Source of the DNA: Octopus vulgaris
Lineage: Eukaryota
Direction of reading: 5' to 3'
DNA length: 64,000 nucleotides
NCBI GenBank assembly: GCA_951406725.2
Contig: OX597839.1
Coordinates: forward strand, 18,414,001 to 18,478,000
Shown here piece by piece: positions 1,424 through 59,750 of the stretch; position 1 is the stretch's first letter, and the number at the start of each line of letters is the position of its first letter. The translations under genes were made by a program, and so were the position numbers. Below the pieces are notes generated by a model that was given only the letters and a program-made list of their open reading frames with translations, searched no databases and had not been told where the DNA came from.

Positions 1424-1612
1424 TTACATGCAGTTAAATAGATGTCCGGTTATAGAATAACCAATGGTTTCACACCCATAAAGCATTTAGCCTCGTAGAT
1501 GACTTGTCAGGCTCCAAGGGTGGAGTCTGAAGAGTCGTCTATAAAGCTGACCTCTTTATGGATGTGAAACCATTGGTCACTCCCTGACTGGACATAAATT
1601 TCACTGCATGTA
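1424..1612. repeat. Imperfect ~90-bp inverted repeat (Penelope-like inverted fragment)
   Basis: 1424-1515 is a diverged reverse complement of 1522-1612, with a 6-nt spacer. Confidence 0.8.
1522..1583 (+). ncRNA. Type I hammerhead ribozyme-like motif
   Basis: GGAGT (stem I) - CTGAAGA - stem II hairpin GTCTATAAAG/CTTTATGGAT - GAA - ACCATTGGT (stem III) - C - ACTCC (stem I). Cleavage triplet is GUC. Confidence 0.7.
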
Positions 1613-1679
1613 ACTACATTACTGCTCTGTCCTTTAGAGTGTACTTCTTTTTTTGGTATACGATCCACTGATAATATAT

Positions 1680-2100
1680 TCTTTTATTCTTTGACTTGTT
1701 TCAATCATTTGACTGCAGTCATGCTGGAGCAACACCTCAAACTTTTTTAGTCGAGTGAATCAATCCCAGTACTTATTTTTTAAGCCTGGTACTTATTCTA
1801 CTTCTGTCTTTTGCCACACCGCTAAGTCACAGGGATGTAAACACACCAGCACCAGTTGTCAAGCAGTGATTGTGGCAGTGGGAGACACACAAACACAAAA
1901 ATACACATAGAGATAGACACACACACACACACACACATATAATATACAACAGGCTTCTTTCAGTTTCTGTCTGCCAGATCCACTCACAAGGCTTTGGCCT
2001 GCATGAGGCTATAGTGGAAGACACTTGCCCAAGGTACCACACAGTGAGACTGAACCCGAAATAATGTGGTTTGAAGGCAAGCTCCTTACCATACAGCCAC
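1680..2100 (-). mobile_element. SINE family A
   Basis: Reverse complement of the 966-1385 family. Confidence 0.85.
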
Positions 2101-2679
2101 ACCATATATATATATATATATATATATATATATATATATATATATATATACACACACACACATATATACTGCAAGTAAATCATCTGTTTTGGGCCATTCT
2201 TATAGTGAAGAATAACAAAAAAAAAAAAAGGAAAAAAAAAGAGGATTCACCCGTGGAGCAAGTTTCAAAATACATAACACTATATTATAACATGTATATT
2301 GTGTGCTCTACTGAAATTTGGACTTCTTAATTATACTATTGAGAAATTTCTGTGTATGTGTGTGTATATATATATATATATATATAAAATTAATTTAGGG
2401 TAGAAATTGATATATATCAATTAGAACCAGTGGTCTAGCATATTAAAAAAAGAATCCGAAGATTAAAATATTTATATATACCAATTATACCATATGGTTT
2501 TGTAGCTGAGTTTGATCTGAGAACATAATCTTTTGTGGAGAATGGCGATTTGACGTCTATATCTAGCATGTTGACTGTCCACTTTTCGTGTTCAGTCCTT
2601 AATTGGTATATATAAATATATATATATATATATATATATATATATATATATATATATATATATATATTTATATATAATC

Positions 2680-3168
2680 ATTATTGTTGTTTAATGTCCT
2701 CTTTCCATGCCAGCATGGGTGGATGGTTTGACTGAAGACTGGCAAGCCGGGAGGCTGCATCAGTCTGATTTGGCAAGGTTTCTTATGTCTTTATTGCCCA
2801 CAAGGGGCTACACACAGAGAGGACAAGCAAAAACAGACAAATGGATTAAGTCGATTATATTGACCCCAGTGCATAACTGGTACTTATTTAATTGACCCCG
2901 GAAGGATGAAAGGCAAAGTCGACCTTGGCGGAATTTGAACTCAGAACGTAATGGCAGACGAAATACCGCTAAGCATTTTGCCTGGTGTGCTAACGTTTCT
3001 GCCAGTTAGCCGCCTTTGGCAAGGTTTCTATGGCTGGATGCCCTTCCTAATGCCAACCACGCTGAGAGTATAGTGGGTGCTTTTTACGTGCCACCGGCAT
3101 GGGAGCCAGTCAGGTTGGCGCTGGCATTGACATGCTTGAATGGTGCTTTTTACGTACCACCGGCACAT
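2680..3168 (-). mobile_element. RTE LINE 3' end (family C) interrupted by a SINE B
   Basis: Family C sequence resumes after the SINE B. A 15-bp TSD TTTGGCAAGGTTTCT lies at 2769-2783 and 3015-3029. Confidence 0.8.
2788..3014 (-). mobile_element. SINE family B (tRNA-like head, Meta-domain-like core)
   Basis: Reverse complement of GGCGGCGAGCTGGCAGAA...GTTCAAATTCC..GGTCGACTTTGCCTTTCATCC. Flanked by a TSD. About 18 copies occur in the window. Confidence 0.85.
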
Positions 3169-3389
3169 ATATTGTAAGAATAAATGTTCTCTGTGTAAGA
3201 CAGTTTTACCATACAGGTTTCAGCTCTTATTGGTAATCACATGGAACTCCCACTGTCCTGTGATCCCACAAGTTTGTGTGTGGCCCAAGGAAGGCTATAA
3301 TGTAATATAAGAAGAACATCAACGAGGGAAAAGAACATGGGTTGAACTTGTTCCTTTTCTCTTCTTTCATTATGTACATACTTAAGGTG

Positions 3390-3605
3390 GTGAACTGGTG
3401 GTACCATTAGCATGCTGAACAAAAGTACTTGGCAGCATTTCATTAGTTTTTACGTTCTGAGTTCAAATCCCACCAAGGTCGACTTTGCCTTTCATCTTTT
3501 CAGGGTTGTTGAATTAAGTACCAGTTGAGCACTGGGGGTGATGTAATTGGCTAGCCCCTGCCTCACCCAAAATTTCAGGCCTTGTGCCTATAGTAGAAAG
3601 GATTA
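3390..3605 (+). mobile_element. SINE family B
   Basis: Core GTTCAAATCCCACCAAGGTCGACTTTGCCTTTCATC and tail GGCCTTGTGCCTATAGTAGAAAG. Confidence 0.8.
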
Positions 3606-56945: not shown

Positions 56946-57259
56946 AAGATAGAACTCACAACTATGTCATTTAAGAGTATGAGGTTTTCTTACGCAGTTG
57001 TTTTGGTGCCATCTATTTAGCATTGGTAATTCGATGCTGACTTAAGTGACATCAGATGTTTTGATGTTTCTCTACTCCTTCTCTTCCTCCTTTCCACACA
57101 TGGTACGTTTGTGTGTACGAGCATATTTCCTCTTTATGCATATGTGGAAGGAGACATTGTTCATATCAATCATCTTCAATTAATAAATTGTAATCTCTGT
57201 CTGTGTGTCTCTCTCTCTGTCTCTGTCTGTCTGTCTGTTTGTCTCTCTCTCTCTCTCTG

Positions 57260-57865
57260 TCAAACAAATCGACCCCAGAACTTTAGTCGAACAAATTGAC
57301 CCCAGGACTTATTCTTTGTAAGCTTAGTACTTATTCTATCGGTCACTTTTGCCAAACCCCTAAATTACGGGGACGTAAACATACCAACATTAGTTGTCAA
57401 GTGACAGTGTGGGGACAAACACAGACACACAAACATATACATATATACAACGGGCTTCTTTTCAGTTTCCATTTACCAAAGCCACTCACAAGGCTTTGCT
57501 TGGCCTGAGGCTATAGTAGAAGACACTTGCCCAAGGTGCTACGCAGTGGAACTGAACCCAGAACCATGTGGTTGGGAAGCAAGCTTCTTACCACACAGCC
57601 ACACACACTCACGCACACACACGTATGTATGTATGTATGTATGTATGTATATCTAAGTGTTTGTGTCCACACCATCGCTTGACAACCAATGTTGGTGTGT
57701 TTATGTCCCTATAACTTAGTGGTTCAGCAAAAGATACTGATAGAGTAAGTATTAGGCTTACAAAGAATAAGTTCTGGGGTTGATTTCTTTAACTAAAAAG
57801 AGAAAAACCTTCTAAGGTGGTGCTCCAGCATGGCTGCAGTCACATGACTGAAACAAATAAAAGAA
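57260..57865. mobile_element. SINE A (minus strand) followed by a SINE A 3' half (plus strand)
   Basis: Matches the family A consensus. Confidence 0.8.
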
Positions 57866-58877
57866 TATATATACAGGGCTGAGAGGCACTAAACTTTACC
57901 CTTCAAGGGCAATGCTCCAGCGTGGCCACAATCCAATGACTGAAACAAGTAAAAGACAAAAAGAAAAAGAACTATTCAGCAAGTGAAAAGGATTTAGATA
58001 AAATTTAGTTTTTGGAGATTTCTGCTACTAATTGGTGAAAGTCGTTAACCATTTAGATCTCAAATATCAGCCTAATTAGCTGGAAAAACTCTTTTGGGAA
58101 TAGATTTTATTTTTTTTTATATTATAATCTATTTTGGCCTTCATAATTAGGTTAAGGCTTAACTGCAGTTGAATCACATCTTGACCTGGCTTACACTGAA
58201 ATGTATGTATGTATATATATGTGTACTTGTATGTGAATGTATATATATATATATATATATATATATATATATATATATATATATGCAAATATGTATATGT
58301 GTATCTATGTATTTAGATGTGTGTGTATATTTATATATATGTGTGTATATATGTATATGTGCATGTATATATTTGTGTGTGTGCGTATATATATATATAT
58401 ATATATATTTATATGTGTTTGTGTGTGTGTATATATATTTATACGTTCATGTATATATGTGTATATATGCATATGTGTGTGCATACACACGTATATATAA
58501 TTGTGTGTGTGTATATATGTATGTATTTATATGCACACACACACACATATATATATATACACAGACACATACATATATGTATGTATGTATATATATATAT
58601 TGTTTTATAATTTGTTTTTATGTATTTGCTGAAGTGCCTTGAAGAGAGTTTAATGGATTTATTGAAATCTCTGCATTGTTTCAATGTTCTTTTTTCTTGT
58701 TCTTTATCATTTTACTCTGTTGCTTTCTTCAACAACCTATTCACTAATTGGTAGGTCATGTGTGTATGAATGAGATCGTCATGGGGTTGGATTTGTAGGG
58801 CTTGTTCTTACTTTAGTGGGTTTGCAGCATTGAACTCTTCCTCTGGATTGTACATAAGTAGCATTTTTTTAAAAATT

Positions 58878-59272
58878 AGGAGTGGCTGTGTGGTAAGTAG
58901 CTTGTTTACCAACCACATGGTTCCGGGTTCAGTCCCACTGCGTGGCACCTTGGGCAAGTGTTTTCCACTATAGCCTAGGGCCAACCAAAACCTTGTGAGT
59001 GGATTTGGTAGACGGAAACTGAAAGAAGCCCATTGTATATATGTATATATATATATGTGTGTGTTTGTGTGTCTGTGTTTGTGCCCCTAGCATTGCTTGA
59101 CAACCGATGCTGGTGTGTTTACGTCCCCGTAACTTAGCGGTTCGGCAAAAGAGACCGATAGAATGAGTATTGGGCTTACATAAGAATAAGTCCTGGGATC
59201 AATTTGCTCGACTAAAAGGTGGTGCTCCAGCATGGCCACAGTCAGATGACTGAAACAAGTAAAAGAGTAAAA
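58878..59272 (+). mobile_element. SINE family A, full length
   Basis: Matches the family A consensus. Confidence 0.9.
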
Positions 59273-59320
59273 GAGAGTAGAGTGTATATATATATATATA
59301 TATATATATATATATATATA

Positions 59321-59750
59321 ATAAAGGGTGAAATTAATTAATTAGGGATAATTATCAATTACACCAAGTAGATTTCGGCATGTAAAAGCCCCATTCGAGG
59401 AAAATTTAAGTAATACTAAGTAATTAAGGGTTTAGCAATTATTCATAATTGTGGTATCCTGCGCCGATGAGAGAAGAAGTTTGGGTAAAGTAGAATTTTC
59501 TAATTCTTATGCTATCCTAAAACTTGATCTCGAAACGTACGTCCGTAGGTAACTTAAAATTGCATGATAGATTGCCGTCATTTCATTCTTTCTTTCTTAC
59601 CTGTCTGTGTTTGCCTTTCAAGTGCTGTGTCTTTACTGAGATCCCCCTTTTAGTAGAAGGAATAGCTATATCTCTTTGACTGCTATTTCTAAATTCGGTG
59701 TGTTGGTGAGGCAATTCGTTGCTAAACCCTTAATTACTTAGTATTACTTA
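59321..59750 (+). mobile_element. Penelope-like fragment between (TA)n tracts with a 32-bp perfect inverted repeat
   Basis: 59407-59438 is the reverse complement of 59719-59750. The fragment contains a hammerhead motif. Confidence 0.7.
59458..59549 (+). ncRNA. Type I hammerhead ribozyme-like motif (U4C core variant, long stem II)
   Basis: CCTGCG - CCGATGA - GAGA...TCTC - GAA - ACGTACGT - C - CGTAGG. Cleavage triplet is GUC. Confidence 0.7.

Follow-up and report, generated by a model that had tools for sequence, protein, structure and literature searches.

Minimal type I hammerhead ribozymes are an established feature of the Penelope-like elements (PLEs) of animals, with the molluscs Lottia and Crassostrea among the hosts (Cervera and de la Pena 2014, PMC4209133); they have a palindromic stem III, an unpaired base after A9 and a G10.1-C11.1 pair, occur in thousands of mostly solitary copies with opposite-strand pairs 100–700 bp apart, and include a U3-A8 covariant of the core. 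Short-stem-III variants of PLE hammerheads are reviewed as small motifs that cleave as dimers (PMC6765202). Type I hammerheads are also found, one per unit, in the metazoan non-LTR (non-long-terminal-repeat) retrozymes, low-GC, non-coding, head-to-tail units that PLEs have been proposed to mobilise (Cervera and de la Pena 2020, PMC7229834; Li, Clavereau and Pollet 2026, bioRxiv 10.64898/2026.07.22.740005). The insertions of endonuclease-bearing (EN+) PLEs and of their non-autonomous partners include partial tandems and inverted, 5′-truncated copies with a tail confined to one end (Craig et al. 2021, PMC8557442), and they lie in AT-rich or microsatellite targets and use two start sites of reverse transcription (PMC8557442; Frangieh et al. 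2024, PMC11167929); the Penelope tail marks these two sites, and the protein nicks AT-rich DNA on both strands, with cleavage at ATT (PMC11167929). Here we describe elements that are alike to these systems in the features just listed, in a 64,000-nt stretch of the Octopus vulgaris genome (GCA_951406725.2, contig OX597839.1, positions 18,414,001 to 18,478,000, hereafter the window). It is in our judgement very probable that the window holds type I hammerheads in four unrelated families of non-autonomous Penelope-like elements (non-LTR retrozymes), likely copied in trans into TA repeats, whose cutting is predicted to be weak and to take place only as dimers. The evidence supports as essentially right the interpretation given in a first-pass annotation of the window, which had, however, overstated the novelty of the class: it is already established, molluscs included (PMC4209133; PMC7229834; bioRxiv 10.64898/2026.07.22.740005), and this caps any surprise. 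What is new lies in the catalytic cores: G3-C8 is fixed in one family (B), and U4C is the majority state in two others (C and D) and in a third family from outside the window.

All five motifs singled out by the annotation have the type I topology, each at the coordinates first given: family A (1522, plus strand), family B (10988, minus strand), family C (17048 and 26616, plus strand) and family D (59458, plus strand). The four families are unrelated, as had been claimed, their best match in a DNA comparison (E 0.016) being merely a 21-nt pyrimidine run. When the window was scanned with a structural descriptor and set against 341 local dinucleotide shuffles, two perfect-core matches stood against a shuffle mean of 0.015, and three matches with at most one core mismatch and a palindromic stem III (A, the C copy at 17048, and D) stood against a mean of 0.14; neither count was reached by any of the 341 shuffles, and the strict motifs are thus far in excess of shuffled sequence. 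The remaining two motifs are decayed copies: the one at 10988 has undergone G12>A (position 11004), and the one at 26616 reads ACAU in place of ACGU and fails the descriptor because this CpG change destroyed its palindrome. Several observations weigh on the other side. The window B copy needs three mismatches, and the relaxed setting taken alone is not significant (3 versus 0.84, a level reached by 23/341 shuffles); the Rfam hammerhead model RF00163 matches D alone and weakly (18 bits versus a gathering cut-off of 34, E 0.047), with no match in searches of A, B and C, and when the entire window was scanned with Rfam, the hammerhead was absent from the top 150 of 212 rows, which are microsatellite-driven. 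One might then suppose that AT-rich repeats have produced the motifs by chance and that their inverted-repeat hosts are miniature inverted-repeat transposable elements (MITEs), that is, DNA transposons; relaxed descriptors do yield 0.8–1.7 matches per shuffled window, A and B do resemble hairpins, and no Rfam match is a confident one.

This supposition was put to a sample of the source genome (2.8 Gb in 227 contigs, AT-rich and microsatellite-laden) consisting of 80 evenly spaced 10-kb stretches (800 kb), scanned with the strict descriptor together with 137 shuffles and a reversed-sequence control. Sixteen intact motifs were found against 0.61 in the shuffles, none of which reached 16, and the reversed sequence gave 0; a C at position 11.1, which is a feature outside the descriptor, recurs in 15 of the 16. 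The hosts, moreover, have an inversion point that differs from copy to copy and two ends that differ by a tail, unlike the fixed terminal inverted repeats of MITEs, and the stems covary. The shuffles of the genome sample, the pairing of ends and the covariation across organisms (both set out below) refute the chance or MITE account, to which we attach next to no credence. Extrapolation puts the number of intact motifs in the genome at ~54,000 (95% interval 30,000–89,000), or about one per 50 kb, and the annotated density of roughly one per 13 kb is not borne out. Among the 16 intact motifs at least four families from outside the window are represented, and BLAST of the same stretches gave 16 loci of C, 7 D-like, 2 of B and 1 of A.

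The families differ widely in age and abundance. DNA searches, which gave 791 initial candidates for A, 3,194 for B, 2,326 for C and 1,933 for D and in which the best 40 per family were scored, put copy identity among the best matches at 72–88% for A (old), 83–93% for B, 93–96% for C and 97–100% for D (young), and exact patterns were counted across the genome 19 times for A, 713 for B, 1,544 for C with U4, 5,541 for C with C4 and 319 for D, with zero matches for the reversed-pattern controls. The claim of several high-copy families therefore stands in so far as all are multi-copy, non-coding and hammerhead-bearing, and falls short for A, which is old and has just those 19 exact matches. The complete motif is restored in the family majorities; that of B reads G3-U4-G-A-A-C8-A, with an unpaired G, a 5-bp stem II, GAA, AAUAUU and U17, and from this intact family state the window B copy has decayed by G12>A.

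In their anatomy the hosts agree with what had been annotated: they are short and non-coding, with inverted arms, adjacent (TA)n or both, in the manner of Penelope-type insertions. The family A insertion (1423..1671, plus strand) consists of an inverted arm with the short end (1423-~1513) and a sense unit with the long end (~1516-1671), and its hammerhead (1522..1583) is built from stem I (1522-26/1579-83), the core CUGAAGA (1527-33), a long stem II (1534-65), GAAA (1566-69), stem III ACCAUUGGU (1569-77) and C17 at 1578. The family B insertion (10859..11122, minus strand) has an inverted arm with the short end (11122-11052) and a sense unit with the long end (11051-10859) and a tail of ~60 nt; its hammerhead (10988..11038) comprises a 7-bp stem I, the core GUGAACA (11031-11025, thus G3-C8), an unpaired G, a 5-bp stem II, the stem III AAUAUU and U17 at 10995. 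Family C is present as a U4-subfamily monomer with (TA)n at its end (16974..17183, plus strand), as two further 3′ halves lacking the hammerhead with TA repeats between (17222..17408, plus strand), and as a second monomer (26543..26751, plus strand). The minimal hammerhead of the first monomer (17048..17082) has the stem I GUUU/AAAC, the core CUGACGA, an unpaired A, GAGC-UCC-GCUU (with C11.1>U in this copy), GAAA, the palindrome ACGU and U17 at 17078; that of the second (26616..26650) has A17 and the ACAU change at 26644. The family D insertion (59320..59750, plus strand), flanked by (TA)n runs, joins an inverted arm with the long end (59320-59438, monomer positions 468-588) to a sense arm with the short end that runs to 59750 (monomer 185-502 of the full 589 nt); its hammerhead (59458..59549) has the stem I CCUGCG/CGUAGG, the core CCGAUGA (U4C, 59464-70), a 61-nt stem II, GAAA (59532-35), the palindrome ACGUACGU (59535-42) and C17 at 59543. 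Self-complementary stem III, a general feature in the annotation, is confirmed as a palindrome in all four families, with the reservations that the centre of the A palindrome is unpaired and that the 26616 copy has lost its own.

Across the genome the same footprints recur. D has a unit of 589 nt with 37% GC, whose longest ATG open reading frame (ORF), with the unit read as a circle, is 49 amino acids, and its arrays reach seven head-to-tail units; units within one insertion, whether on the same arm or on opposite arms, differ by 0.4%, versus 1.6% between insertions (57 C4 units). Its 3′ ends fall into two clusters, at 490-509 (43/77) and 580-609 (30/77), and a long and a short end are paired in 23/27 of the two-armed insertions of D and in 32/35 of those of B; the 17 distinct two-armed loci of A, judged by eye, each join a short end to a longer one, which is clearly long in 15. 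C has a unit of ~219 nt with a single 3′ end, is usually single and rarely two-armed, and shows seven exact head-to-tail junctions in the genome. (TA)3 lies at most 20 nt from the 3′ end in 63/74 copies of C, 28/31 short ends of D and 11/31 long ends of B, against a background of 6%. One hammerhead is present per head-to-tail unit in D and, rarely, in C. The tails here, at ~55–95 nt, are longer than the 30–40 nt given for EN+ PLEs (PMC8557442; PMC11167929), and no sequence link to an autonomous partner was found among the 40 PLE loci compared.

Compared with the published non-LTR retrozymes, D stands apart by its 61-nt stem II, its 8-nt palindrome and its C4 core, and A, B and C by being mostly monomers or two-armed insertions. 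Head-to-tail units were not seen in A and B, which counts against the retrozyme assignment for these two families, with the best 40 candidates scored per search, and is in keeping with another explanation, namely that A and B (C and D less so) are merely the 5′-truncated 3′ ends of autonomous PLEs, the origin to which most solitary minimal hammerheads have been ascribed (PMC4209133). Yet the sense arms of B have a fixed starting point ~13–25 nt ahead of stem I, and no arm examined extends into shared upstream sequence; C and D form head-to-tail units without an ORF; and ORFs for PLE reverse transcriptase (RT) or GIY-YIG endonuclease, which the annotation had proposed to look for next to the motifs, are neither in the window nor joined to any family copy. 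Truncation therefore strikes us as improbable.

The genome itself does contain candidate helpers. GIY-YIG domains were found in 148 of the 150 scored out of 6,136 candidates, many of them in 781-amino-acid frames, and intact RT+GIY-YIG PLEs are present. One locus (L151), a young autonomous element, encodes RT followed by GIY-YIG; it ends in (TA)n, each of its terminal repeats has a hammerhead-like motif with U3-A8, and between the two domains lies a cysteine motif like that described for Neptune/Nematis, its putative clade. In this element (L151:406-4087) a 359-codon frame lies upstream of the 781-codon RT-EN frame, a split common to three copies (L151-L153) that might reflect an intron or a frameshift. 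No DNA similarity was found, however, between families A–D and 40 PLE loci around GIY-YIG matches, L151 included; this comparison drew on 150 of the 6,136 candidates and sampled one PLE clade. Pieces resembling D beside PLE fragments (L015, L128, L156 and L183) were considered as a link to a helper and set aside, since TA runs separate the two and mark them as independent insertions. As no sequence link to an autonomous element was found, mobilisation in trans is read from the footprints, which make the RT+GIY-YIG PLEs of the genome the likely source of the machinery for A–D.

The annotation had also described the cores as non-canonical, which holds for B (G3-C8) and D (C4) and fails for A and both window copies of C, which have the canonical CUGANGA. 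At the level of families the 3-8 pair is C3-G8 in A, C and D, and across all families C-G, U-A and G-C occur; among the 100 B matches listed, counted by eye, 77 read GUGAACA, 82 keep G3-C8 and none has C3-G8. Canonical U4 is found in A, B and the window copies of C, and C4 prevails in C (78% of exact matches, 5,541 versus 1,544, and 8/13 copies in the evenly spaced sample) and in D (76 of the 100 matches listed). A further family, two-armed and from outside the window (L125:196-345), has a very short stem II, the palindrome ACUCAGAGU and both C4 and U4 copies; its 11 loci (with L052, L104, L167, L169, L179, L190, L205, L233, L255 and L343) divide into seven with C4, two with CpG-decayed C4 and two with U4. 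CpG decay as the general origin of U4 copies is ruled out by linked differences between the subfamilies: A17 is seen, by eye, in 26/100 U4 and 0/100 C4 copies of C among the matches listed, and the U4 and C4 subfamilies of D differ at 52/589 positions (~90% identical), each young at 1.7% and 1.0%, respectively, from its own majority. The non-canonical cores are thus family-wide states and not products of decay. No family majority departs from G5, A6, A9, G12, A13, A14, A15.1 or U16.1, and stem II is closed by a G-C pair with an unpaired base in B and C and by G-C without the unpaired base in D.

Every letter of family C agrees with the minimal consensus published earlier (PMC4209133, Fig. S3). 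Both G3-C8 and C4 are absent from the 56 representatives shown in that figure, and the descriptor used there would miss them; the set as presented includes no cephalopod, whereas here such cores are family majorities. U4C is otherwise a natural viroid variant, weakened in vitro yet viable (PMC3088659), and G3-C8 is a laboratory mutant with partial rescue (PMC11167929). A literature search for G3-C8 as a natural core found none, with the qualification that Lunse, Weinberg and Breaker 2017 may list variants; a search for publications on cephalopod hammerhead families likewise found none, where the supplements of PMC4209133 and of the bioRxiv preprint, the available text of which samples no mollusc (bioRxiv 10.64898/2026.07.22.740005), may bear on novelty.

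Whether such ribozymes still cut has to be approached by way of selection and folding. Copies within young families merely decay, so the test of selection was made between lineages. Compensatory changes of the stems, a check proposed in the annotation, were seen in D as individual observed changes, both between subfamilies and across organisms: in the extension of stem II one pair differs in a compensatory way between the two subfamilies (U-A to C-G), and in contigs of four other organisms the pair at the base of stem II goes from G-C to A-U (in run X20 each side of the swap accounts for 100% of the covering depth), a stem I pair goes from G-U to A-U, and N7 is free. These contigs, few in two of the runs and with a depth that does not equal copy number, have 28 variable positions in 231 nt and no listed change at 11 invariant core positions. 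U4 predominates in two of the four organisms and makes up about half in the other two, and for this reason U4 is likely to be ancestral. In the predicted cofold of D the lowest-energy dimer is a double hammerhead whose stem III forms between the two molecules, at -6.8 kcal/mol versus two monomers; the lowest-energy dimer predicted for A likewise pairs stem III between molecules, and none of six palindromes folded forms a hairpin alone. These predictions, and analogy with known systems, suggest dimeric cleavage.

A number of results count against active cutting. The lowest-energy dimers predicted for B and C differ from the hammerhead dimer; core conservation between the two D subfamilies alone is not significant (1/39 functional hammerhead positions, namely position 4, versus 51/550 others, p 0.12); none of 114 5′ truncations of D lies within 5 nt of the cut site (positions 288-298), and the site is no hotspot of heterogeneity (2/46 multi-unit insertions, in a set of 234 D units from 83 insertions). 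Multi-unit arrays require uncut or circular templates, which fits slow cutting or none, and among frog retrozymes one of nine predicted dimers cleaved in vitro (bioRxiv 10.64898/2026.07.22.740005). One array (L305) that varies just after the cut was considered as a footprint of cut and religated RNA and rejected, given that 4/169 covering units differ there and that the position is a CpG site. The elements could accordingly be Penelope-mobilised and their hammerheads no longer cut, the fold being kept as a structure for protein binding or packaging, or as a relic. U4C does lower activity in vitro (PMC3088659), G3-C8 rescues it only in part, the hammerhead of a lizard Penelope is dispensable for insertion in vitro with no reads ending at its cut site (PMC11167929), and the long uncut D arrays and the spread of truncations point the same way. 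Against this, the core changes that are family-wide are confined to kinds known to preserve some activity (swaps of the 3-8 pair, U>C at N4, a free N7, an N17 other than G), and the eight positions from G5 to U16.1 listed above stay unchanged in all majorities and, for D, in the four organisms as well. Loss of cutting is for us a serious but unlikely alternative to weak cutting as dimers.

If Penelope-mobilised hammerheads do cut weakly, the following course of events can be envisioned. A Penelope protein would bind the element RNA and nick both strands of AT-rich DNA, as in the published mechanism; reverse transcription starting at either of two internal sites would give short and long ends, and priming from both strands would produce the back-to-back arms. 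In a multimeric transcript two hammerheads may pair by way of their palindromes and cleave behind N17, releasing monomers able to circularise, and G3-C8 and U4C cores would slow this cutting, so that uncut multimers or circles persist as templates. Circular retrozyme RNA has been shown in coral, mussel and axolotl (PMC7229834; bioRxiv 10.64898/2026.07.22.740005). Contigs from three runs that are presumably of RNA cover most of D but bear neither on ends or strand nor on circles, and they carry no weight in the argument here. We put forward, tentatively and with more doubt than confidence, that slowed ribozymes have been repeatedly selected in the Penelope-mobilised RNAs of this lineage, with U4C having become the majority independently in at least three unrelated families and G3-C8 fixed in a fourth, slow or protein-gated cutting being what would preserve the templates.

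The hammerheads of PLEs cut poorly in vitro, and one is dispensable for insertion. The sister subfamilies of D, one with U4 and one with C4 and both recently active, allow core position 4 to be compared with transposition success, and a natural G3-C8 family, together with tens of thousands of copies, makes ribozyme activity comparable with transposition success more widely. Such matched subfamilies would offer a way to ask whether repeats spread better when cutting is slower, and should slowed ribozymes indeed have been selected, the paired U4/C4 subfamilies would amount to a natural experiment on the hammerhead in Penelope transposition. The findings also suggest that, among the short octopus repeats now listed under unclassified short interspersed nuclear elements (SINEs) or under MITEs, some are Penelope-mobilised ribozyme elements; a 2026 annotation counts 893 recently active unclassified SINE families, and its accessible part does not mention a ribozyme (PMC13282606).

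More unrelated palindromic hammerhead families were noted at L204, L206, L214, L249, L253, L124, L129 and L132, with features that include U3-A8 with ACGCGU, a long stem II with ACAUAUGU, and ACGAUCGU, among others; given these extra families, the hammerhead repertoire of the genome is well above four families. In the window itself a sixth, uncertain hammerhead-like motif (53594-53636, plus strand) has a U3-A8 core and the palindrome AUGCAU, which could be a CpG-decayed ACGCGU; it belongs to an old repeat family of 72–79% identity whose majority retains the core, GAAA and the palindrome and is without the G-C closing pair of stem II. A D-like 3′ tail of 78% identity without a hammerhead lies between TA runs at 4026-4096 (plus strand), and other diverged D-like tails occur at L128, L156, L183 and L190.

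The window has six exact matches (1266, 26886, 56288, 56810, 59151 and 63264) to a 14-mer from a highly abundant short repeat that we take to be an octopus SINE, and A, the C copy at 26616 and D each lie less than 300 bp from a match. The descriptor found no hammerhead in the short tandem repeats at 15764-16130, 21573-21799, 48850-49031 and 53091-53288, which have periods of 82, 26 and 100 nt. At 39764-42544 there is a young satellite of 27 near-identical (97%) copies of a 103-bp unit; its minus-strand translation presumably resembles the C-terminus of an RTE-type long interspersed nuclear element (LINE) protein, and the flank continues the same reading, so that the satellite was apparently born from a LINE fragment.

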